A stretch of 64,000 nucleotides of DNA from a virus: the IMG/VR virus record IMGVR_UViG_3300032285_003860; one strand, 5' to 3'. Positions 12,935-50,472 of this stretch are shown piece after piece (the stretch's first letter is position 1; the number at the start of each line of letters is the position of its first letter). The notes beneath the pieces are model-generated. The model did not search any database. It was not told the DNA's origin and saw only the letters and a list, made by a program, of their open reading frames with translations. Both the position numbers and the translations under genes were made by a program.

Positions 12935-15628
12935 ATGAAATCAAGTTTAAATTGTGGAATAAAGGGTGCTTATAAGGTAGATTTATATAAAGGCGCTGGA
13001 AAAAACAGAGAATTTGTAGAAACTACCGAATGGTTTGACAATGATATTACCAACGTCGGGCTAAATTACCCATATTATTATCCATTTGCAAGTTGTTTCA
13101 TGTTTTTGTCTTTGGGTTCTGGGGCAGGTGGAAACAATGGAAACAGACAAAATTCTACAGGTTTAAATTTACCAAACAAAGGTTTTCCAGTTTTTAGCAA
13201 TATATATACAGGAGTTCCTCCAGCAGGTTACCCCACTGGAACTTATATTCAAAGCGGTCAATATATTGGATGGCAAGGTTATGAAATTGGTGGAGTTCAT
13301 AACGGCGGAAATTCAACAACAAGTTTAGCACAATCAACTTGCGGAACAAAATTTACTCCAAGTGGTATTAATTTTTATAGAGGTTGGACTATTCCTACTG
13401 GGGCGCAGCCAACCGAAGGAGCAGAAACTATTGCTGATCCAAATGGATTAGTTATACAGGGATTGATGGTGTCTCCTTCTAGTGGTACAGATGCAACAGG
13501 AAAATATGCATTTAGTCTTGTGGACAGAAGCATTACTATTCCAAGTGGATATACTGCAACAATTACTTATAATCTAAGTTTAAATTTTCAAGATTACGCA
13601 AATTCATATACATTCTTTTCTGGAATTTATGGAGGAGCCAATGGATATTTTAATACTGGAAATGCCTATTCTGGAATCAATAATTCGGAGCTTTCATTAT
13701 TGTCGGGATGGAGCAAACTTTCTGGTTTTTATAGAATGCTTTTCCCAGGCATAAACTTTGTTAATTATTGGGGAGGAGTCGAATCTTCTTCTGATAGAGG
13801 AAATGAATTAGAGCCTTATATTATACAATGTTTAAAGACTTGTTTTTATTTGTCGCCAGACATTGCGCAATTTGCCGTTAATAAATTTGGTCCACAAAAT
13901 CCAACTTATTTAACTGGAGAATCTCAAGCATATAATTCAAATGGCCTTGCTGGAAATTATTTTGAATCTGTATCAACAGCTCAAAATAATGGACAAGATG
14001 CTTCTTTACAATTGGATAGCGATGCAACTGCTGGAACAGTTTTTGGTACCCCAAATGATTATTATTATAATATAAAATCTTTAGCCCAGACAGCAAAAAT
14101 TTATCCAAATCTTCCTGCTAAAAATATAAGATTAACAAATACAACAGACATAGCTAATTATTCTGGATCAGTTGCCACTGGATCAAATGGTTCTGCATTG
14201 TTTTACAATAAAACATTCCTCAATGCAAGAAGCGCCTCAATTGATTTTGCAACGCCAGGAAAAAACGGATTCAATGATTCGTTGTATCCTAATTATGGAA
14301 ATATTTCAGTGTACTCTTCAATGTTAAGAAGAACTCCAATTCCTGTTGGAGGAGTATTGGCTAATACGGGGACTTCTGATGCAAATCCAAAAAGAGATAA
14401 AAAAATAACTAAATCTGCTTTATTTTCTCCCATTCAATCTTTGGGATATAATAGTAGGTTTTCAAGTTTAACATTAGGATACGGTTTACCACAAATTAAT
14501 TCTATACCATCAATTTATCCATATGTGGATTTTCTTTTCTTGGATTCTTCTGGTAGAGCAGCAGATATGCCTCACTATCGTTTGATTCCTGATATATATT
14601 TAACAAATCGCGGAACAGGAGTAGCTCAAGCAATTTTCTCTATCACAGGATCAGATGGTAAACAAATAAATTCTGCAAATAGATTTTCTAAAGCTTATGC
14701 TTTCATGGGTACAGGAGTAGATTATAATTCTTCTGGAATAGATATTATTAATAATTCAATGATTAATAGTAATAGTATTCTAGATACAAATAGTAGTTTT
14801 GTGCCTCCTGGTGCAAAACCTACTGGTTATCTTTTTCCTGGTCAAGTAATAAATTCAAACGTTAGCGGAAGCAACTCTTTTAATAATTATACTGGTTGGG
14901 GCGCAGTTTATGGTGTCGTTGGAAGTTCTGGATTTTATCAAAGTTTATATGATGCGTGTTTAATTGATTACGCTGCAAAACCTTGGCAAAATGGAAACTG
15001 GAGCGGATTCTCTGGAGACAATGGATTAAATTCTTATCCAAATGAAACTGGGGATCAATCAAAATTATTCTGGCCAATTAAACAAAGTGGAATTGGGTTA
15101 GCTATTTCTGGAATGCAATATTATTCACCTTATTTTAATACGATATTAAGCGATCCAAATGATGATTATGTTATAAAATCTGGGGCACAATATTTATTTG
15201 ATGTCACCGGAAGCAATGGGGCGTCTTTAATTGGGACGGCAAGCGTTTTTTCCGCTGTATTTCAAAGCGGGACAAAAGGTATAACTATTGCTTCGCTTGG
15301 TAATCCTATTACTGGATACGCTTTACGTTATCCAAGTTTTGCCGCATTAACTGGCTCCGGTTTAAACGCTATACAAATTTCTGCATTCAATAGTGGATCA
15401 TATAATATTTCTCCAACTAGATGGTCAAAACCATCAGGGGTAATTCATCATGTTGAATCACTTAAAATTGGTTCATCGCAAACTGGATATAGATTGTTAC
15501 CAAATTATGCTCTTCCAAACAATAATCAAGTTAATAATTATTCTCCTGTTATAGGCGGGGCATATCCTGCGTTGAGTATGCAAAATGGATTGCAAGTTTA
15601 TTTTGACTTCATTTGGTCTGGAGCATGA
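12935..15628 (+). CDS. large putative virion protein (paralogue of downstream gene)
   Basis: 897 aa, G/S/N/T/Y rich; N-terminus W.DN.ITN.G..YPY...FA.CF.FLS.GSG shared with next gene. Confidence 0.7.
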   Translation: MKSSLNCGIKGAYKVDLYKGAGKNREFVETTEWFDNDITNVGLNYPYYYPFASCFMFLSLGSGAGGNNGNRQNSTGLNLPNKGFPVFSNIYTGVPPAGYPTGTYIQSGQYIGWQGYEIGGVHNGGNSTTSLAQSTCGTKFTPSGINFYRGWTIPTGAQPTEGAETIADPNGLVIQGLMVSPSSGTDATGKYAFSLVDRSITIPSGYTATITYNLSLNFQDYANSYTFFSGIYGGANGYFNTGNAYSGINNSELSLLSGWSKLSGFYRMLFPGINFVNYWGGVESSSDRGNELEPYIIQCLKTCFYLSPDIAQFAVNKFGPQNPTYLTGESQAYNSNGLAGNYFESVSTAQNNGQDASLQLDSDATAGTVFGTPNDYYYNIKSLAQTAKIYPNLPAKNIRLTNTTDIANYSGSVATGSNGSALFYNKTFLNARSASIDFATPGKNGFNDSLYPNYGNISVYSSMLRRTPIPVGGVLANTGTSDANPKRDKKITKSALFSPIQSLGYNSRFSSLTLGYGLPQINSIPSIYPYVDFLFLDSSGRAADMPHYRLIPDIYLTNRGTGVAQAIFSITGSDGKQINSANRFSKAYAFMGTGVDYNSSGIDIINNSMINSNSILDTNSSFVPPGAKPTGYLFPGQVINSNVSGSNSFNNYTGWGAVYGVVGSSGFYQSLYDACLIDYAAKPWQNGNWSGFSGDNGLNSYPNETGDQSKLFWPIKQSGIGLAISGMQYYSPYFNTILSDPNDDYVIKSGAQYLFDVTGSNGASLIGTASVFSAVFQSGTKGITIASLGNPITGYALRYPSFAALTGSGLNAIQISAFNSGSYNISPTRWSKPSGVIHHVESLKIGSSQTGYRLLPNYALPNNNQVNNYSPVIGGAYPALSMQNGLQVYFDFIWSGA

Positions 15629-41068: not shown

Positions 41069-41953
41069 ATGGAAAAAGTAAAATATCTTTATGAATCAAC
41101 CGTCCAAAAGACTATTGAAGAAAAAGTGACCGAAAAAAGACAGGAAAATGGTCAAGAAATTGAAGTTTCAAAAACCGTTAAAACCAAAAAGCCCTTTAAA
41201 ATTGCGGTACTAAAGCCTGATAGAAAAAAGTTTAAAGAGGCAGAAATTTTCTACGCCAAAACACTTTCTCATTATTTGAAAGAGGGTCTTCTTCCATATT
41301 CTCTTGTTTCAAAAAGATACATGAATGATGGTGGGCCATTGAGTGACGACGAAAAGAAGTTTATTAATACTCTCAGAGAAAAGTATACAGAAATTCAAGA
41401 AGAATATTTTTCTATGCCTTCGGAATTAACTGAGGCCCATAACAAAAGACGCGCAGAAATTCTTTTAGAAATGACTGACATCAACAAGATTCTTAATGAA
41501 ATTCAAAATAATTATGCTGAATTATTTGACAATACTGCCGAATCCAAGAGTAAAAATGATACTATTGAATGGTGGATTTTGAACTTGAGTTATGCTGATG
41601 AAGATGGAAATGGTCTCAAGCCTTTTTATGGCGAAGAAGATTTCCAATCTAAAATGAAAAAGTTGGAAGCTCATGAAGCTAAAGATGACCCTTTTATTAA
41701 CGAAGTAATAAAAAAGCTTTCTTATTTTATTAGCTTCTGGTATGCCAGCAAATCACAAATCAAAGACGAAGATTTTAAATCTGCGGAAGAACATTATAAC
41801 CAAAATGTTACAACTTATCTTCAAGACGAAGATATTGCTGCCGCCACAGAAACAAAACCGGCAGAATCTGTTGCTCCCCCCACGCCAATTGTTGAATCAG
41901 TTGCTGTTGCCGCCGTTGAAACTCCTATTGAAGTTGCCTCAACGCAATCCTGA
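41069..41953 (+). CDS. putative tail assembly chaperone
   Basis: charged helical protein between tube and tape measure. Confidence 0.5.
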   Translation: MEKVKYLYESTVQKTIEEKVTEKRQENGQEIEVSKTVKTKKPFKIAVLKPDRKKFKEAEIFYAKTLSHYLKEGLLPYSLVSKRYMNDGGPLSDDEKKFINTLREKYTEIQEEYFSMPSELTEAHNKRRAEILLEMTDINKILNEIQNNYAELFDNTAESKSKNDTIEWWILNLSYADEDGNGLKPFYGEEDFQSKMKKLEAHEAKDDPFINEVIKKLSYFISFWYASKSQIKDEDFKSAEEHYNQNVTTYLQDEDIAAATETKPAESVAPPTPIVESVAVAAVETPIEVASTQS

Positions 41954-41959
41954 TAAAAT

Positions 41960-42823
41960 GTGGAATCGTTTAGAGAATATAAAGTTTCAGAAATAGATGA
42001 ATTAAAACTCATCTATTATGAAATTATTCACGGCAGTAGTTTTGAACCAGACATTAATCTATATATAAAACATTTTTCAGAATTAGAATCATTTCTTATT
42101 TTAAAAAAAAGAACAGAACTGTTTCATTTCTATTCTAAAGAAGGCGTACCGCATGAATTAGAATTGCTCAAAAATGCCATAGCTACAGAAGAATGGTCAG
42201 AAGAAAAAGAAAACAAAATTCTTGAATTTAAATATTTAATTTCTGACAACGAAAAAAATATTCATAATATTATACCTGAGCAACGTGCTCCCATTCAAAA
42301 AATCATTGATAATACAAAAGTACAGCTTAATGAAATGCTTTTTGATAGAAAAGGCATATTGGGCAGAAGCATAGAAGATCTTATTGATGATGATATAGAA
42401 GATTACTTATCCTATCTTTCTTTTTTTAAAGACGAACCCTGTACAATTCCATATTTATCAGATTATGAAGAATTTCAAAAACTTGAAATGTCTGAAATTA
42501 ATAAATTTAATATTAGTCTGGGAAAGACATATAAGAAATTTTCTGAAGAAAACATTAAAAAAATAGCCTGCTTACCTTTCTTTTTAAACAAATTTTCCTA
42601 TTCAAAAGAAAGAATTGATGGATTTTTAGGTAAACCAATCAATTCATTGACCAACAACCAAACCTCTTTATTTTCACTAGGGGTAAGAAATTTAAACGTT
42701 TTATCCCATGCAAAGGGTAGTCCTCCCGATGTATCTCTTGAAGCCAAACCCTTGGATGTTTTAAAATGGTATGATATACAGCATTCCATTATGATTGCCA
42801 AGCAAAATCAATCTGATTCTTAA
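41960..42823 (+). CDS. putative tail assembly chaperone 2
   Basis: GTG start; directly precedes tape measure; helical with coiled-coil centre. Confidence 0.5.
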   Translation: MESFREYKVSEIDELKLIYYEIIHGSSFEPDINLYIKHFSELESFLILKKRTELFHFYSKEGVPHELELLKNAIATEEWSEEKENKILEFKYLISDNEKNIHNIIPEQRAPIQKIIDNTKVQLNEMLFDRKGILGRSIEDLIDDDIEDYLSYLSFFKDEPCTIPYLSDYEEFQKLEMSEINKFNISLGKTYKKFSEENIKKIACLPFFLNKFSYSKERIDGFLGKPINSLTNNQTSLFSLGVRNLNVLSHAKGSPPDVSLEAKPLDVLKWYDIQHSIMIAKQNQSDS

Positions 42824-42879: not shown

Positions 42880-45800
42880 ATGGAAGATAATTTAGGCCAG
42901 GTAAAGGTATTAATAACTCCAGTAATTGATCAATCAAGACTTGATTCTGGGATAACGGATGCTGCTGAAAAAATGGCAGCACGTTTTGACAAAGCCTTTA
43001 CTGGTAGAGGTCAACCACTTGGAAGAATAACTGGCAAAGTTACAGAGTTTGAAAAATCAATGGAAGCGGCAAATGCCCGCGTTATTGCTTTCGGCGCTTC
43101 TGCTGGTGGTATTTATCTTGTTAAATCTGCGTTTGATAAATTAGTATCTTCAACAATTGATGTAGAAAAAAATCTCACAAATATTAATATGATTTTGGGC
43201 TTGGGAAGTTCCAGCCTAAAAACTTTTTCCGCAGAAATGTTCAAAGCTGCCTCTGCTTCTGGACAAACATTTGAGACTGCTAGTAAAGTTGCCCTTGAAT
43301 TTGCTCGTCACGGTGTAAGCGCGGTAGAAACCTCAAAAAGAATGAGTTCTGCAATGCAGTTAATGAGAATTTCTGGTTTGGATGCAGGAGAATCCGTTGA
43401 TGTATTAACTGCTTCAATTAACTCTTTTAATAAAGAAGCCTTGACATCTGCTGATGTTGTAAACAGACTCACTGCTGTTGATACAAAATTTGCCGTTAGC
43501 GCCCAAGATTTAGCAAAGGCAATTGAACGCGTAGGTTCAACTGCTGCTGAAGCTGGGATACAATTTAATCAATTATTAGGCTTTGTTACTGCTGCTCAGA
43601 CGCAAACTTCTCGTGGTGGCGCAGTTATTGGTAACGCTTTTAAATCAATCTTTACAAGACTAGCTCGTCCAGAAGTGCTCTCTGATTTGCAAGCCGTAGG
43701 CGTAACAACAAAAGATGCTGCTGGGCAAATTTTGCCAATGGTCCAAATCATGAAAAATTTGGCTTCCCAATATAGTCATCTTGGTGCAGCTCAAAAATCA
43801 TTCATATCTGAAACTGTTGGCGGTGTTTATCAAGTCAACATTCTCAAGGCATCTTTAGCAGATTTAGGAAATGGAATTACTATTTTTGATAAAGTTGCCG
43901 CCACTGCCGCAAATTCTGCAGGGGTTGTTGATAAAAGAATGGCTCAATTAAATGAGACAATTTCTTCTAAATTAAATGTTTCTGCAAATCAATTAACTGA
44001 ATTATTTTCTAACTTGGGTAATGTTTCTTTCGGTGGAAACATGAAAAAGGGTCTTGATAGCGTAAATAGTCAATTGGACTTTGTAAAACGTCAATTGGCC
44101 GATTTTTCAGAAGATGATACTTTTGGACAATCATTTGGTAAAACAATTGGCAGAGGATTGGCTGATGCATTTGGTAATATTTTATCTGGACCAGGGCTTC
44201 AAATTGGAGCGATGTTGTTGACTAAAGTCGTTGTAGGTCTTGGTAAGTTTGCAATTGACGCAGGTAAAAATATGATGGGCATGACTGATGCCTTAAAAGC
44301 GCAGCAGGGACTTTTATCTAGCGTGGGTAATTTTTTACAAAATCATAAAACTTTATTAGCAGAGCTTGAGTCTGGTCAAATAAGCATAAATGAAGTGACT
44401 GAACTTTATTTAGCAGACCTCGGAAAAGAAGAAGCGCATTTCGCTGCAATGGCCAGATACCAAAGAGAAATTGCTAGTTTGGCTCGACCATCTTTAAGCG
44501 CAGAAGCATTTGCGGAGTCCAAAACAAAAGGTGCTTCAGCAGGATATATTCCCGCTTTCGCACAAGAAGAAAGAGATGCCAGATCAAAAGGGGCATCTCC
44601 CAGCGTTAGAGCAATGTTTGGTCCAAATATCCCTGGGATTGGTCCAACAATTATTAATAGTGAAGAAGTTGTAAAACAAAATTATGGTGGATCTGGACAG
44701 CCAGCAATACTTCGTACTTATGGACCCCCTGGACCAACAAAACTTTCAGGAGGACTTGTTCCAAATTTAGCAAATATTTTAGGAACAATATCTGTTGAAG
44801 GAATAAGATACCAAAAGCCTGATAAAAAATCATTTCAAGATTTTGATTACCCATTTATAGATTTATTGTCAATGATTCAAGGGCAATATGGCAGACAAAT
44901 TCTCCCAATTTCTGCCAAATCTGGAATAGAAGCTGTATCAAAAGTTGGTCATCCAGGAAATTGGAATATAAGAGGATTTAACAAGCCTGGAGCAATTGCA
45001 AATTATCTTCAAGAATTATCTCGCCCAGAAATGTTTGTACAAGAAAGTTCTGAGCGTTTAAGGCATATAAGATCAAGTAAAGAAGTTTTTAAAAATCGTT
45101 TTATAAATCAAATTGGTGCGTATAATACTCAAGGTTTTGAAAATTTAGAATTTTTAAATCCAGTTGTATTTGGGGCAAAAGAGAAGGGCCAGGAAATATA
45201 TCATCAGATGCAAAAACAACCATTGTTATCTTCTGCTGAAGAATTTCCCGCAATAAAATCGGCAAGAAATTTTCCTTGGTATAGAGGAGGAAAATCTTTT
45301 TCTCCTACAACTATGGTTGAAAACGAAAATATTATTCGCGGTCCAAAAACATATGGCGCATGGTACGAAGATTATATTCAAAAATTTTTAAAAGCTCATC
45401 CAGATATTCTTTCGTTAATTGGTCCAGGAATGACTACAGAAAGCCAGGCTCAATTAAATCAATTATTAAGAAATTTTTCTAAAGATTACGAAGGAGAAGA
45501 GAGATTTTTTGAAGAAAAGTATATAAAGAAATCTGGTGGACACATTCCAAACTTTGGAAAAATAATTAGCAAAGGTGGTTCTGATCTTGATCTTTCTGAA
45601 GATGGAACATTAAAAATACATTATCTCGCTTCATCTATTTCTAACAACGTTTTTCCCGAACTTCTTGAAGCATTAAATTCTGGAGAAATAACAAAAATAG
45701 ATGGAGGAACAATTGTCGGCCCCAAAGTTCCAAATTTAATTCATCATTTATCAAAGCTTTTACCAAAGTTAAGAAAAATAAATCCAAAAATACCCAGTTC

Positions 45801-48800
45801 TATTCCAATAACTGGTTATTTTACTCCTAACGATTTATATCGTAATGCTTTCAGAAATAGGGGCGAAATGGTAACGCGCAATGTTTTGGATTCAGAACAT
45901 CAAAAAAAATTAAAGGAGCTTGCTTCTAGTCAAGGATTAAGAATTGTAAAAACCGGTAGTTATACTCGTTTTGTTAAAAAAGAAGACAAAAATGATTTCA
46001 ACACTGCTTATGAAGTTAAAGTTCCTGGAGAAAGATCTCCAAGATATGGTCTTTTTACAGAAGAAGATATACAAGGAATATTCCCTCAAGCAACATTTAC
46101 TCCAAAAACGCAAAGAGATCTATTTTCTAGTAATACAACCGCCAGAAAAGATCTTACGCAATTAAGAGCTGCTGTCAAAGCGATGGCTGGCGCAAACAGA
46201 CAAAATGTAGAAGATAGATTTGGTAGAGAATATATTGAATTATCAAAAGTTTATCCTCGCGGATTGGCTTCGGGATATAATCCTATTGCCGATGCATTTA
46301 GCAGAGAGAATTCTCCAACTGCAAAGCTTGGTTTTTCTTCAAGAGTTAAAAGTTCTGGAAATCCTGGTGGAGCATTAGTTTATGATTCTTCTTATCAAAA
46401 TGGTCCAGAAGATGCAATCAGACAACATCTTATGTCTGGAAGACCAGACGTAGTAAATGCTGGTACGCCTAATGAAAAAATTCCAAACTTTGCAATGGAT
46501 ATGTCTGCTATTTCAAGCATTGCTCTTGGCGCAATGCAAGGCACAGGACTATCAGACTGGACATCTAAAAAGATGCCTGAAATTTCTTATGGCTTTGATA
46601 AAATGCAACATGCAGTTGGTACTGCCACCGAAAAATTGTTGTTGATGCAAAAACAGTTGGAAGCAGGTCAAAATGTAAAATATGGTGGTCAATCATATGC
46701 ACCAGATCAATCAATAGAATTAACAAATGCATTTAAAAAAGCTTTTGATGAAAAATTTAAAGGCAAAGGTTTTCAATTTGGTACATCTCAAGAAGAATTA
46801 AAATCTCAGCAAGCGGCCTATATTCCTTATATTCAAAAAATACAAGAAAAAGAACAAGGAATTCGTTCTCGTGGATTTGCTGCAAGCATGATTGCCCCCG
46901 CAGTTGGGGGAATTGTTTCTCAGGGGCTTCAAGCTGGTGGGTATCTCAATGCTTCAAAAGCTGTGTCAGCATTAACAGATAGCGCCACAATGGCTGCTCA
47001 ATTCATGATAGCTTTTCCAAACAGAGTTGGAACAGCACTTTCTGGTGCAGTAATGGCTTCTGGTGTTTCTAATGCTCTTAATGAAATGGTTTATAAAACC
47101 GGCACTTTAGAAAGAGCATTTGATTTAACAAGTACAAGATTAGAAAAAACTGCTTCAGCAGTAAATACAATCAATCAAAGTTATGATGCACTTGATTCTG
47201 CATTAAAATCTGGATCAATAAGTACTAGTCAGTTAGTTGCACTTCAAAGAAATTTAGCAAAATCTTATTCAGAATTGGGTGCAGTAAAAGGTGGCGGAGC
47301 AATTGTCGCCGCAATGAAAGGTGCTGGCACAGCCGAAGCAAGAGCAACGGCTGGGGCAGAAGCAGTCGATGCATTACAAAATGAAAGAAATAAAAGTTCA
47401 TTTCAATTAGCTTTTGCAAAACAACAACAAGCTCGTTCTGAATTTGGAATTAATTTTGGAAAAGGAGCGCAAGGAAATCTTACTCCAAGAAATAGACAAG
47501 AACAAATTGAAAATATAGAATTAATGCGTAGTGCTGCATCAAATATTCAAGGTGAATTTATTACTGCCCAAAGTAAAAAGGGTGGAAACGCAGAATTGGT
47601 ACAAAGAATGGCTACAGGAGTAATTTCTAGGTCAGATGTTGAAACAATTAAAAAAGGGGCAAAAGAAACAGAATCCTATAAAGACTTAGAAAAGGCTGAC
47701 CCAAAAGCTGCGGCTGCTGTAATCGAAGAATTAAATAGACAACTTCAAGAGGTTGCTATACCTGATGACCAAATTTCAGCATATAAAGAAAGTCTTGCAA
47801 AATTAAAAAGTCTTCAAATTCAAGAAGTTTATTTGCGCCAAAACTATAATCAGTCTCTGCAAAATAAATTGCAAAGCGGTTCAATTGCTTCTGCGATGGC
47901 CAATACCAAAAATATATATGGTATTCAAAGCAAGGGAATACAAGAGGGTTACGAGTATTCTAAAAAAGAAAAAGGATTGGGATTAGAAGCTCTATACACT
48001 GGTGAGCAGTCAATGATTTTAAAGAGGGGAAAAGAAGAACAAGCTCATATCGCAGAACAAACTAGTCTCAAAGCTCAGGCTGTTAAAGCTCAAGGTGGAG
48101 CAGAAATTGGTTCTTTAATTAGCGGAGAGATTGGAAAATTCATTTCTTCATCTTTGGGAACGGCGGAAGCTTCTGGAAAAACTGGTACGGTGCAGCCAAG
48201 TGAAGCATTGAGTAAAGCAACAGAATATCTTGGCGCCAGACAAAAAGAATTTTCTGGAGCAGGAGGGGCAGAAAAGTTGTTTGAATTACAACAAAAAGCT
48301 ACATCACCAGATGAATTTGCTAAAAGTTATCTTGGAGAATTTAAAGACTTTCAAGCTGGTACTGGGGGAAAAGGTACAGAAGCAGATTACAAAACTTTAC
48401 TCAGTCAAATTTCAACAATGTCGGCGGGAGATATAAATGAAAAAATGCTCAAAACTCTCCTTGATATTCAAAAAGTTGATGAAGAAGGTAACGCACAGCA
48501 AAAAGAAAGCTCTGATCAAATGATTGCTGCCATTGCCGCTTCTAAGTTTAAAGAAGCTGCTGGCCAATTAGGAGGAACAGGAATTTTAGATAGAAATACC
48601 TTTCGTCAACAACGCAGAGAAATAAGAAGAGCAGAATCTAAATTGCGCTCAAGAGATGCCGGAGTAAGAGGCGAAGGGGCAGCAAGATTATTGGCTGCAA
48701 TTCCAGAAAGTCAAAGAGATTATAATGACCCATATATTAAAAAATTATATGATGCTGCCTCTGGAGGCATAGCAAGTAGACAAGCTCGTACATTACAAGG

Positions 48801-50472
48801 AACTGGCATTGGAAAATATATGGTCTCTGGCGCCGAAGCTGGTCAAGCTGCAATTTTTGAAAGATTTAAAGGCACAAATCTTCCTATTCCAAAATCAGTC
48901 AAAGAGGGATTAGAGCAGATGAAAAAAGGCCAAGGCGTAAATCCAGAATTCGACGCCGCTTTAAAAAAATCCGCAAAATCTCTTAAACTCTCTACAGATG
49001 CTGTTGATGCTTTTGCGACTAAAATTAATTCTTTTAATTCTGCCATTGATATTGGTCAAAAAACAGGAGCTATTGCGCAAAACAAAGCCGAACAAGATCA
49101 AGTTAAAGCAGAAATGGAAAAACAAAAGGGTGAGTTACCTGCTGGCACAGCAAAGTCTAGCGAAGCAATTCTTCCCATAACAGATAGTCTTATTACAAGA
49201 TATGGTCAAGATACCGTTCGTCTTTTGACTGATATTTTGGGGGCAATGATTGCTTTGCGCATACTTGGCGGCAAAGGAGCAATTAGTGAAGTTGGTGCAG
49301 GAATTGCTGCTGGTGGTAGAAAAGTAATGGGCGGTATAAAAAGTATTGGTAGAGCTTTTGGTATTGGCGCAGCAGCAGAAGGCTCTGTTGCAGCAGGGGG
49401 CGCTATTGCAACAGAGGCTGTCACAGCGGCAAAGGGGACAATTAAAGTAGATCTCGCCGCTCAACAGGCAAAAGCCTTGGAAAAACAAATGGCTTATATC
49501 CCAGAATCTTTTGGAGGTCCAAAAGCTCCAGGTCCATCTTTCGGGGAAGTTTTGCCAGGAGAATTAACTCATCTTGAACCAACTTCACAACTTAAACCAC
49601 AATTTAAACCTGGTGTTCCCGTAACTGATGCAGAAATAAATTCTGCTTTAAATGCAGGAAGAGAATCTGGAAGACAAGCGGCGAGCACAAGTAGAGCCAT
49701 TGCCGCCACGGAACAGGCAGCAAAGACTGCCAGCGAAGCTTCTAAAGCTGGTAAAGTATTGGGTATGGGAGCAAAAGTTGGAAAATTTGTAGGGGGTAGT
49801 CCACTTTTAGGAGATTTAGTAGACGTTGCTTCTATTGGTGCAGGAGCCATCTCTGGAGGAGGAAATATATCCGAAACAATGGGCGACATGATGTTAGAAT
49901 CTGCAAAAGAAAGAGTTAATAAACCTGGTGGACATATGGGCGGTGACTTTTTGGCTGGTATGACCGTAAGAGGAATGACCAGTTCTTTCTTAGCTAAAGA
50001 TGTTAGTAAAATGCAAGAAGGCGAAGGTGGCATAAATAGATTAGAAAATGCCATAAAAATGAAAGAATTGATAAAATCTCAAGGTGGCAACATTAAAAAC
50101 GCTGAATTATTTAGCCCAGATTTTAGAAAAAATTTATTAAATCCAGAATGGCAGCAGTCTCATGGTCTTGCCCCTCATTTGGATAAATCTGGTGGCATTG
50201 TTGCTCCAACTGGCGCAGCAATTCCAACTGGAGACGCTGCTGCCAAAGCCACAGGACAAAAACCAGAGTCAGAGGCTTCTAAAACAGAGAAAAAGCCAGC
50301 AGAACCACAAAAGGTTGATGTTAAAATGAGTGCGGAGCCATTGCATGTAAATGTTACTGTTACCGATGAAAATGGTAAAAAGATACAAGAAATGCAGCAA
50401 CAAATTGTTCAGTTCAAGCAAAAACTAGAAGAAGTAACTGGAAATAAAACTCCAGCGGCTATAACTAAATAA
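42880..50472 (+). CDS. tail tape measure protein with internal globular inserts
   Basis: 2530 aa, Ala/Gly-rich helical; TP901-type core (EFARHG, FAVSAQDLAKAIERVGSTA, GAVIGNAFKSIFTRL). Confidence 0.92.
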   Translation: MEDNLGQVKVLITPVIDQSRLDSGITDAAEKMAARFDKAFTGRGQPLGRITGKVTEFEKSMEAANARVIAFGASAGGIYLVKSAFDKLVSSTIDVEKNLTNINMILGLGSSSLKTFSAEMFKAASASGQTFETASKVALEFARHGVSAVETSKRMSSAMQLMRISGLDAGESVDVLTASINSFNKEALTSADVVNRLTAVDTKFAVSAQDLAKAIERVGSTAAEAGIQFNQLLGFVTAAQTQTSRGGAVIGNAFKSIFTRLARPEVLSDLQAVGVTTKDAAGQILPMVQIMKNLASQYSHLGAAQKSFISETVGGVYQVNILKASLADLGNGITIFDKVAATAANSAGVVDKRMAQLNETISSKLNVSANQLTELFSNLGNVSFGGNMKKGLDSVNSQLDFVKRQLADFSEDDTFGQSFGKTIGRGLADAFGNILSGPGLQIGAMLLTKVVVGLGKFAIDAGKNMMGMTDALKAQQGLLSSVGNFLQNHKTLLAELESGQISINEVTELYLADLGKEEAHFAAMARYQREIASLARPSLSAEAFAESKTKGASAGYIPAFAQEERDARSKGASPSVRAMFGPNIPGIGPTIINSEEVVKQNYGGSGQPAILRTYGPPGPTKLSGGLVPNLANILGTISVEGIRYQKPDKKSFQDFDYPFIDLLSMIQGQYGRQILPISAKSGIEAVSKVGHPGNWNIRGFNKPGAIANYLQELSRPEMFVQESSERLRHIRSSKEVFKNRFINQIGAYNTQGFENLEFLNPVVFGAKEKGQEIYHQMQKQPLLSSAEEFPAIKSARNFPWYRGGKSFSPTTMVENENIIRGPKTYGAWYEDYIQKFLKAHPDILSLIGPGMTTESQAQLNQLLRNFSKDYEGEERFFEEKYIKKSGGHIPNFGKIISKGGSDLDLSEDGTLKIHYLASSISNNVFPELLEALNSGEITKIDGGTIVGPKVPNLIHHLSKLLPKLRKINPKIPSSIPITGYFTPNDLYRNAFRNRGEMVTRNVLDSEHQKKLKELASSQGLRIVKTGSYTRFVKKEDKNDFNTAYEVKVPGERSPRYGLFTEEDIQGIFPQATFTPKTQRDLFSSNTTARKDLTQLRAAVKAMAGANRQNVEDRFGREYIELSKVYPRGLASGYNPIADAFSRENSPTAKLGFSSRVKSSGNPGGALVYDSSYQNGPEDAIRQHLMSGRPDVVNAGTPNEKIPNFAMDMSAISSIALGAMQGTGLSDWTSKKMPEISYGFDKMQHAVGTATEKLLLMQKQLEAGQNVKYGGQSYAPDQSIELTNAFKKAFDEKFKGKGFQFGTSQEELKSQQAAYIPYIQKIQEKEQGIRSRGFAASMIAPAVGGIVSQGLQAGGYLNASKAVSALTDSATMAAQFMIAFPNRVGTALSGAVMASGVSNALNEMVYKTGTLERAFDLTSTRLEKTASAVNTINQSYDALDSALKSGSISTSQLVALQRNLAKSYSELGAVKGGGAIVAAMKGAGTAEARATAGAEAVDALQNERNKSSFQLAFAKQQQARSEFGINFGKGAQGNLTPRNRQEQIENIELMRSAASNIQGEFITAQSKKGGNAELVQRMATGVISRSDVETIKKGAKETESYKDLEKADPKAAAAVIEELNRQLQEVAIPDDQISAYKESLAKLKSLQIQEVYLRQNYNQSLQNKLQSGSIASAMANTKNIYGIQSKGIQEGYEYSKKEKGLGLEALYTGEQSMILKRGKEEQAHIAEQTSLKAQAVKAQGGAEIGSLISGEIGKFISSSLGTAEASGKTGTVQPSEALSKATEYLGARQKEFSGAGGAEKLFELQQKATSPDEFAKSYLGEFKDFQAGTGGKGTEADYKTLLSQISTMSAGDINEKMLKTLLDIQKVDEEGNAQQKESSDQMIAAIAASKFKEAAGQLGGTGILDRNTFRQQRREIRRAESKLRSRDAGVRGEGAARLLAAIPESQRDYNDPYIKKLYDAASGGIASRQARTLQGTGIGKYMVSGAEAGQAAIFERFKGTNLPIPKSVKEGLEQMKKGQGVNPEFDAALKKSAKSLKLSTDAVDAFATKINSFNSAIDIGQKTGAIAQNKAEQDQVKAEMEKQKGELPAGTAKSSEAILPITDSLITRYGQDTVRLLTDILGAMIALRILGGKGAISEVGAGIAAGGRKVMGGIKSIGRAFGIGAAAEGSVAAGGAIATEAVTAAKGTIKVDLAAQQAKALEKQMAYIPESFGGPKAPGPSFGEVLPGELTHLEPTSQLKPQFKPGVPVTDAEINSALNAGRESGRQAASTSRAIAATEQAAKTASEASKAGKVLGMGAKVGKFVGGSPLLGDLVDVASIGAGAISGGGNISETMGDMMLESAKERVNKPGGHMGGDFLAGMTVRGMTSSFLAKDVSKMQEGEGGINRLENAIKMKELIKSQGGNIKNAELFSPDFRKNLLNPEWQQSHGLAPHLDKSGGIVAPTGAAIPTGDAAAKATGQKPESEASKTEKKPAEPQKVDVKMSAEPLHVNVTVTDENGKKIQEMQQQIVQFKQKLEEVTGNKTPAAITK

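Follow-up and report, generated by a model that had tools for sequence, protein, structure and literature searches.

The window analysed here is a stretch of 64,000 nucleotides (nt) from the IMG/VR virus record IMGVR_UViG_3300032285_003860. It is a segment of a divergent phage genome with a guanine-cytosine content of ~34%, part of a contig of at least 163 kilobases (kb), and nearly all of its long open reading frames (ORFs) lie on the plus strand. We studied the gene at 42880-50472 (+), a single ORF of 2530 amino acids (aa), whose product is a tape measure protein (TMP) of the TP901 type. The PhageMin_Tail family of Pfam (PF10145) matches aa 123-311 with an E-value of 2.8e-25 and 89.8 bits, against a cut-off of 33.2, and nine tape measure families of PHROGs match as well, all within the N-terminal ~500 aa. 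These matches define the N-terminal TP901-type core, aa 1-552 (42880-44535, +). The C-terminal remainder, aa 1206-2530 (46495-50472, +), was recognised by its composition, rich in Ala, Gly and charged residues, and is presumably helical. Between the two lies a cassette, aa 553-1205, in which a module A, a cargo 1, a cargo 2 and a module B follow one another with copies of a short motif between them. An earlier note on this DNA, made from the sequence alone, had described the middle segments as unlike the Ala-rich protein on each side, and the composition bears this out: Ala makes up 3-7%, aromatic residues 6-13% and Pro 4-9% of aa 601-1100, whereas the values are 10-21%, 2-7% and 0-3% in most of the flanking 100-aa windows. 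The whole protein of 2530 aa contains no Cys.

The consensus of the motif family is A-x-G-[FY]-[IV]-P-N-F-A. The first copy in the window, SAGYIPAFA (44536-44562, aa 553-561, +), has Ala in place of Asn and stands first among the motifs in the alignment of module A. Module A itself (44563-44745, aa 562-622, +) is a small conserved domain that follows the TMP core in relatives, and its alignment of 13 sequences contains an invariant Glu within an N-x-x-E element. Copy 2, SGGLVPNLA (44746-44772, aa 623-631, +), was placed by alignment with relatives and precedes cargo 1 (44773-45531, aa 632-884, +), an orphan of 253 aa. Cargo 1 had no match when 1.84 billion representatives were searched exhaustively with phmmer, and its sole relative, 86% identical, was found by comparison with a sister phage, L001. 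Copy 3, SGGHIPNFG (45532-45558, aa 885-893, +), is followed by cargo 2 (45559-46266, aa 894-1129, +), which is 236 aa long and belongs to a module family seen only inside TMPs, with 13 copies in 11 proteins and no stand-alone homologue of 96-511 aa. An invariant loop of the cargo 2 family, G-P-[KR]-[IV]-P-[ND]-L (45715-45738 in the window), resembles the junction motif, and an exact DNA repeat of 12 nt is shared by motif 2 (44758-44769) and this loop (45727-45738).

The alignment of module B placed the last two copies. A remnant of copy 4, ASG(YNPIA), starts at 46267 (aa 1130, +), has its core deleted and heads module B; remnant and module together cover 46267-46479 (aa 1130-1200, +), and the alignment displays near-invariant R-E and N-P-x-G elements. 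Copy 5, IPNFA (46480-46494, aa 1201-1205, +), ends the cassette. The earlier note had counted five related motifs, and all five strings were found at the coordinates it had given. Its fourth, ASGYNPIA, was rejected as a diverged copy: compared with relatives the 5-aa core F-V-P-N-F has been deleted, NPIA is the N-terminus of module B itself, and only a remnant is left. The note had also described two Gly/Pro modules of ~60 aa. These, of ~60-75 aa, are present and flank the cargos, but they are two different modules. Although A and B fell into one BLAST cluster, this link arose from one segment containing both, and we rejected the possibility that they are paralogues, as hhalign aligns the motif only. 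Each is conserved across the family, yet the motif is all that they have in common. The note's reading of the inserts as modules foreign to the TMP, with a repeated linker at their edges, was upheld.

Constraint on the junction motif

Three definitions of the motif pattern gave 3, 4 and 2 matches in the TMP of the window, against means of 0.007, 0.039 and 0.002 in shuffled sequences, and the observed count was reached in none of 5000 shuffles, whichever definition was used. When the 64-kb window was translated in six frames, the motif was confined to the TMP ORF except for one LLPNYA, which is about the chance expectation. This single motif-like string, G-Y-R-L-L-P-N-Y-A at 15494, lies in an 897-aa protein of the head region (ORF 12935-15628). 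One could still argue, from the individual imperfection of the copies in the window, that the repeats reflect a chance or low-complexity likeness within a long Gly/Pro-rich protein. The five strings lie in frame in one ORF, as had been claimed, and the 5000 shuffles together with the presence of the motif in register in hundreds of related proteins refute this explanation, to which we assign practically no probability.

A logo was built from 94 motif copies in 20 giant TMPs. Pro was found in all 94 copies, Gly in 87, Asn in 79 and Phe in 73. Twenty-four copies, from 10 genes, match the consensus perfectly, and these use all four codons of Gly, of Pro and of Ala and both codons of Asn and of Phe, even within one gene. 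Since synonymous codons vary so freely, conservation acts on the peptide and not on the DNA, and the motif is therefore conserved for a role at the protein level. The DNA common to the copies amounts to only ~10-14 nt of microhomology, and given this short stretch and the drift of the codons, the motif is read more readily as a permissive boundary between modules than as a sequence dedicated to recombination. In our reading it would have a function in the protein and, in addition, mark the only joints where recombinants stay viable. AlphaFold predicted the motifs to be disordered, with a predicted local distance difference test (pLDDT) score below 50 at both ends of cargo 2 and of 30-37 at copy 2.

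Related tape measure proteins and module exchange

A phmmer search with aa 553-1205 against the 1.84 billion representatives returned 18 proteins, 15 of them giant TMPs of 1900-3900 aa and three of them shorter proteins or fragments. The number of motif copies per protein was 2-9 in 17 full-length giant relatives and 1-8 in 118 readable further proteins bearing module B, and the motif recurs in at least 130 related metagenomic TMPs. In giant TMPs with complete N-termini the first motif is found within aa 540-630, just past the TMP core, and the array usually closes with a module B of ~70-80 aa and a last motif copy. A profile of module B matched at least 396 proteins of 164-2000 aa (E ≤1e-3), which come from JGI, ENA, Logan, NCBI and TARA assemblies. 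Among the 120 matches listed, about two thirds carry PF10145 or a TP901 tape-measure name, and the rest are mostly unannotated and often on short contigs. The architecture is found widely among uncultured phages, of which many were recovered from aquatic assemblies (JGI, TARA). The phages of GenBank gave no nucleotide or protein match to the cassette, and the N-terminal core found only TP901-core matches of ~25% identity there, in Bacillus and Lactococcus phages; the TMP therefore has no cultured relative.

A search of IMG/VR with the N-terminal core found only the contig L001, which belongs to a ~90%-identical sister phage and encodes a TMP of 2765 aa. The two TMPs are 97.8% identical in the N-terminal core, 96% in module B and 89% in the C-terminal region. 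Exactly at motif 3 of the window, L001 has an additional orphan module with one motif copy, 242 aa in all. At the DNA level the cross-over lies inside the codons of motif 3: the window corresponds to the left junction of L001 up to GGTGGA, the Gly codons, and to the right junction from TTTGG, Phe-Gly, onwards, and the two L001 junctions have 11 nt of identity in common. The extra module of L001 (L001:11000-11725) matched nothing in Pfam, NCBIfam or PADLOC and has no relative among the 139 family proteins examined.

Similar differences were seen in other pairs of close relatives. By an automated motif-based parse, which mis-scored the pair of the window and L001, 39 of 127 pairs with N-terminal cores at least 75% identical differ in the architecture of their cassettes; five pairs were checked by alignment and four were confirmed. 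In the near-identical pair P0023/P0026 a 277-aa indel has both its ends inside the motif. In P0099/P0112, also near-identical, a difference of 111 aa has a motif at the start of the gap and another just past its end, and for P0074/P0085 and P0034/P0067 the alignment breaks up the extra module, at whose outer edges motif copies lie. Module swapping exactly at the motif, as the earlier note had anticipated for related phages, is thus seen against L001 and in P0023/P0026, and three more cases are bounded by the motif or adjacent to it. By these alignments, modules are gained, lost or replaced at the motif or next to it between close phages, so that the cargo set is evolutionarily exchangeable. 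Of the idea that the linker is a recombination joint, what stands is that modules are exchanged there; the free variation of the codons speaks against a dedicated DNA sequence.

Six TMPs of the sub-clade to which the window belongs have N-terminal cores 58-62% identical to that of the window and C-terminal regions 25-32% identical, and between these homologous flanks their cargo sets are entirely different, ranging from none to more than 1000 aa. Across the family, 336 inter-motif segments fell into 50 BLAST clusters, of which 36 are singletons. The ratio of nonsynonymous to synonymous substitution rates (dN/dS) between the window and L001 is 0.27 in cargo 1 and 0.25 in cargo 2, compared with 0.05 in the N-terminal core, 0.11 in module A, 0.09 in module B and 0.14 in the C-terminal region. 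Both cargos are under purifying selection, weaker than on the flanks, and with ratios of 0.25-0.27 against 0.05-0.14 in the other parts of the TMP they are therefore selected, functional and faster evolving.

Some relatives carry arrays of other kinds. P0016 has a second complete cassette of module A, cargo and module B in the C-terminal half of the TMP (aa 1825-2262; L010:8473-9786), so a whole cassette can be duplicated or transposed as a unit. On the contig L009 (L009:2-8553, logan SRR27444652_18), which has no TMP core, three consecutive ORFs hold at least 13 junction motifs in more than 2800 aa. This may be an extreme multi-cargo array, with a TMP possibly split into genes or broken by frameshifts. 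The C-terminal parts of P0004, P0007, P0008 and P0010 contain a repeated D-D-V-P-A-M-L-x-G-G-E-Y-V-x-N-x-x-A-V between variants G-G-x-[IV]-P-K-[FY]-A; this repeat resembles the N-x-x-E element of module A and also the junction motif, and it is absent from the TMP of the window.

Predicted structures and function searches

From a 12-sequence alignment, AlphaFold predicted cargo 2 to be a compact globular alpha/beta domain, with a mean pLDDT of 74.7 and a predicted template modelling (pTM) score of 0.61, and hence not an extended helix of the TMP type. Compared with solved structures and with predicted viral structures, this model gave nothing above noise (Foldseek E >0.03, VIA Z ≤4.3); weak and scattered likenesses to STAS, metallo-beta-lactamase and ClpP/SppA folds, with Z of 3.5-4.3 and Foldseek E >0.03, were not interpreted. 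Module A was modelled with a pLDDT of 56-82 as a small helix-plus-sheet unit of one helix and four short strands. With the model of module A and cargo 1, a fold search matched only the C-terminal helix of the model, and that to generic helices. Nothing usable on cargo 1 or cargo 2 came from the ESM Atlas, and searches of PDB sequences with profiles of modules A and B found nothing.

A Pfam scan of 37 TMPs and fragments of the family, that of the window included, recognised only two domains between motifs: a staphylococcal nuclease (SNase) domain in P0010 (aa 662-755; the motifs on either side are at 628 and 829) and DUF7178 in P0014. Two family members have GH19 chitinase-like and VanY domains of ~200 aa. 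In both, no motif was found beyond residue 100, so the GH19 and VanY domains are not between motifs and are placed C-terminal to the cassette. Likenesses to a protein kinase (E 0.11) and to a cytidylyltransferase-related region (E 0.019) in relatives are below threshold; they agree with strings seen by eye and were not counted as evidence. The commonest cargo of the relatives, with 76 segments and absent from the window, looks PD-(D/E)xK-like by eye (E ... D-F-D ... [ED]-x-K). This is a lead only, as no search supported it, and the profile of this cargo matched nothing among PDB sequences.

Domains with enzymatic motifs are known inside other TMPs, namely motif 3 of mycobacteriophage TM4, Pb2 of T5 and the muramidase of phiIPLA35 (PMC12617516, refs 56, 59). 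The TMP of the window resembles these, as they are described there, in having non-helical domains within its length and in being a protein expelled at infection. It differs in that they have, in that description, one or two peptidoglycan hydrolase domains and no repeated junction, whereas here an array of unrelated modules shares one motif and shows turnover. A hydrolase was not detected: the TMP of the window has no lysozyme, transglycosylase or peptidase match in Pfam, NCBIfam or PDB sequences, and the fold search with cargo 2 gave no hydrolase above noise. The precedents invite the explanation that the modules are envelope-penetration or structural parts of the TMP, whether wall-degrading, membrane-inserting or receptor-proximal, and that the motif is simply a tolerated linker. 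Muralytic domains embedded in TMPs are well established in the references that PMC12617516 gives, the GH19 chitinase-like and VanY domains occur in this very family, and module B is nearly universal and strongly conserved, as a core TMP function would be. Against this, the GH19 and VanY domains cannot sit between motifs, and the domains that Pfam does find there are the SNase nuclease and DUF7178. In a tolerated linker, G, P, N and F would moreover not stay nearly invariant in very divergent proteins while the codons drift, and 36 singleton cargo clusters are unexpected for a fixed structural role. We consider this explanation quite improbable.

Fate of the modules and comparison with known systems

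We propose that the protein is probably a polyvalent TMP, with an exchangeable cassette at aa 553-1205 between the core and the C-terminal region. In this proposal the N-terminal TP901-type core and the long C-terminal region would enclose a cassette of independently folding modules, in which the conserved modules A and B frame the two cargo modules and the short disordered motif marks each boundary. TMPs are expelled from the tail ahead of the DNA and span the envelope; in phage lambda, gpH is processed to gpH*, and six TMP copies are present in Ur-lambda (PMC12617516). As the TMP leaves the tail before the DNA, the cargo modules would arrive in the envelope or the cytoplasm of the host as infection begins, where they may have the anti-defence or effector function that the earlier note had inferred for them. 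The motif would most likely be a site of processing or release as in a polyprotein, or else a docking element for carrying non-helical modules in the tail. By analogy with polyproteins and with polyvalent proteins (PMC5512222), processing or release is a plausible role, which we rate as somewhat less than evenly probable. More tentative, and rather doubtful, is the fuller version, in which the motif would be cleaved, by itself at the Asn-Phe bond or by a phage or host protease, and the TMP would be a polyprotein releasing swapped effectors ahead of the DNA. Self-cleavage at the conserved Asn-Phe bond is the speculative form of such processing.

Several points weigh against the proposal. None of the five copies in the window is a perfect match to the consensus: Ala stands in for Asn in copy 1, the core is gone from copy 4, and copy 5 is without G-[FY]. 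The junction function may be relaxed in the lineage of the window. Neither cargo of the window was matched in Pfam, NCBIfam, PADLOC, PHROGs, PDB sequences or known folds, which leaves them with no assignable activity, and the alignment of the cargo 2 family has no invariant residue of catalytic type. The model of cargo 1 reached a pLDDT of ~30, and because it was made from only two sequences its fold is not readable; of the structure predictions and fold searches that the earlier note had pointed to, cargo 2 thus gave a globular domain without a fold match and cargo 1 an uninformative model. No protease was recognised either: the TMP of the window has no HExxH or HDxxH and no match to a peptidase family in Pfam, and the conserved genes upstream of it match no family. 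By a general estimate, three copies of folded 250-aa domains, or six in the case of Ur-lambda, would be too large for the lumen of a siphovirus tail tube. HExxH strings occur in some of the relatives.

Instead of being cleaved, the motif could be a docking or packing peptide that binds the lumen of the tube, the chaperone-like proteins encoded upstream or neighbouring TMP chains, while the TMP stays whole. The non-helical modules would then be held in the tail either in register or in an unfolded state. Disorder in monomer models combined with constraint on the protein is what short linear binding motifs typically show, and a motif-like loop, G-P-[KR]-[IV]-P-N-L, is invariant inside the cargo 2 family. 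The negative protease search fits as well, as does the co-occurrence, in every related locus, of the TMP with two unusually large (~290-aa) genes in the position of the chaperones. However, a binding partner was not found, and an identical junction repeated between unrelated domains is the classic layout of a polyprotein. We regard docking, including the keeping of modules in register, as unlikely.

The polyprotein analogy draws on viral polyproteins and on proteins that cleave themselves at Asn, such as the nodavirus and tetravirus capsid proteins (N|A and N|F), FlhB/EscU (N|PTH) and autotransporters. What likens them to the TMP of the window is a short conserved junction that recurs between domains of unrelated kinds and in which Phe comes after a near-invariant Asn, and the same short motif is indeed found at successive domain boundaries. 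The difference is that Asn is replaced in 15 of 94 motif copies, including copy 1 of the window, and cleavage here would be by analogy. Lambda gpH undergoes proteolysis in a Gly-rich region as the tail matures, after which it spans the envelope (PMC12617516). That is a single C-terminal cleavage, at an exact site not yet determined, in a protein without cargo modules or a repeated motif; for the TMP of the window cleavage is a conjecture.

Close to the proposed polyvalent TMP are the polyvalent proteins of phages and conjugative elements, in which many unrelated domains are shuffled (Iyer, Burroughs, Anand, de Souza, Aravind 2017, PMC5512222). In both cases one large virion-associated polypeptide holds unrelated, rapidly shuffled domains, and for polyvalent proteins processing into units has been proposed (PMC5512222). 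The TMP of the window has four distinct modules and indels between relatives, and its delivery with the virion would follow from its identity as a TMP. Polyvalent proteins are packaged in the head or delivered by conjugation, with a zincin-like peptidase as the proposed processor (PMC5512222), whereas here the carrier is a TMP. Unlike them, the protein of the window lacks HExxH, and a conserved junction peptide marks every boundary. A processing metallopeptidase (MPTase) like that of polyvalent proteins was not found, with no HExxH/HDxxH string and no peptidase match in the TMP. Enzymatic domains of the conflict type (nucleases, ADP-ribosyltransferases (ARTs), ParB-like) were not found in the window with Pfam, NCBIfam or PADLOC, and the SNase domain of P0010 is one that lies between motifs in the family. 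The words 'tape measure' and 'linker' do not occur in PMC5512222. A TMP-derived scaffold with diverse functional domains has been described for the Sle1-type TMP-related effectors of actinobacterial contractile injection systems (PMC13277306). These share with the TMP of the window the use of such a scaffold as a reconfigurable platform, but in them a single functional domain sits at the C-terminus, they are part of a contractile injection system and no junction motif has been reported for them, whereas here the TMP is that of a phage tail.

In the open-access literature we found no description of the motif strings, of TMP cargo or of polyvalent TMPs, and a TMP with swappable cargo modules at a conserved junction motif is apparently undescribed. 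No other phage protein enters the host envelope before the TMP, but TMPs have been treated mainly as rulers and channel formers. If the proposal is true, they would offer phages a second route, besides head-packaged proteins, to pre-load proteins for the first moments of infection, and dozens of module families without known fold or function would become candidates for host-takeover or counter-defence activity. If the junction is a signal for processing or loading, it could offer an entry point to the question of how a tail tube conveys globular domains. Should the cleavage reading hold, these TMPs would be a tail-borne counterpart of the head-packaged polyvalent proteins in a large clade of uncultured siphoviruses, delivering lineage-specific effectors (nucleases and many unfamiliar folds), and the portable junction could be used for loading new cargo. 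The motif together with module B provides a simple sequence signature for finding such TMPs in metagenomes.

The two ~290-aa genes lie directly upstream of the TMP gene (41069-42823, +) and were compared in alignments of 11 loci each. They accompany the TMP in all related loci, with lengths of 250-340 aa across loci. Directly upstream of the TMP is the usual place of the tail assembly chaperones, and the two genes at 41069-42823 are about twice the usual chaperone size. They matched nothing in PHROGs, Pfam or the PDB, for the last of which profiles were included. No known family was matched by the neighbours of the TMP, apart from a weak Phage_min_tail match downstream in L003 and L006 only. 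The gene order, two genes of ~250-340 aa, the TMP and then large tail genes, is kept in 10 of the 11 related loci that were fetched, L009 being atypical.

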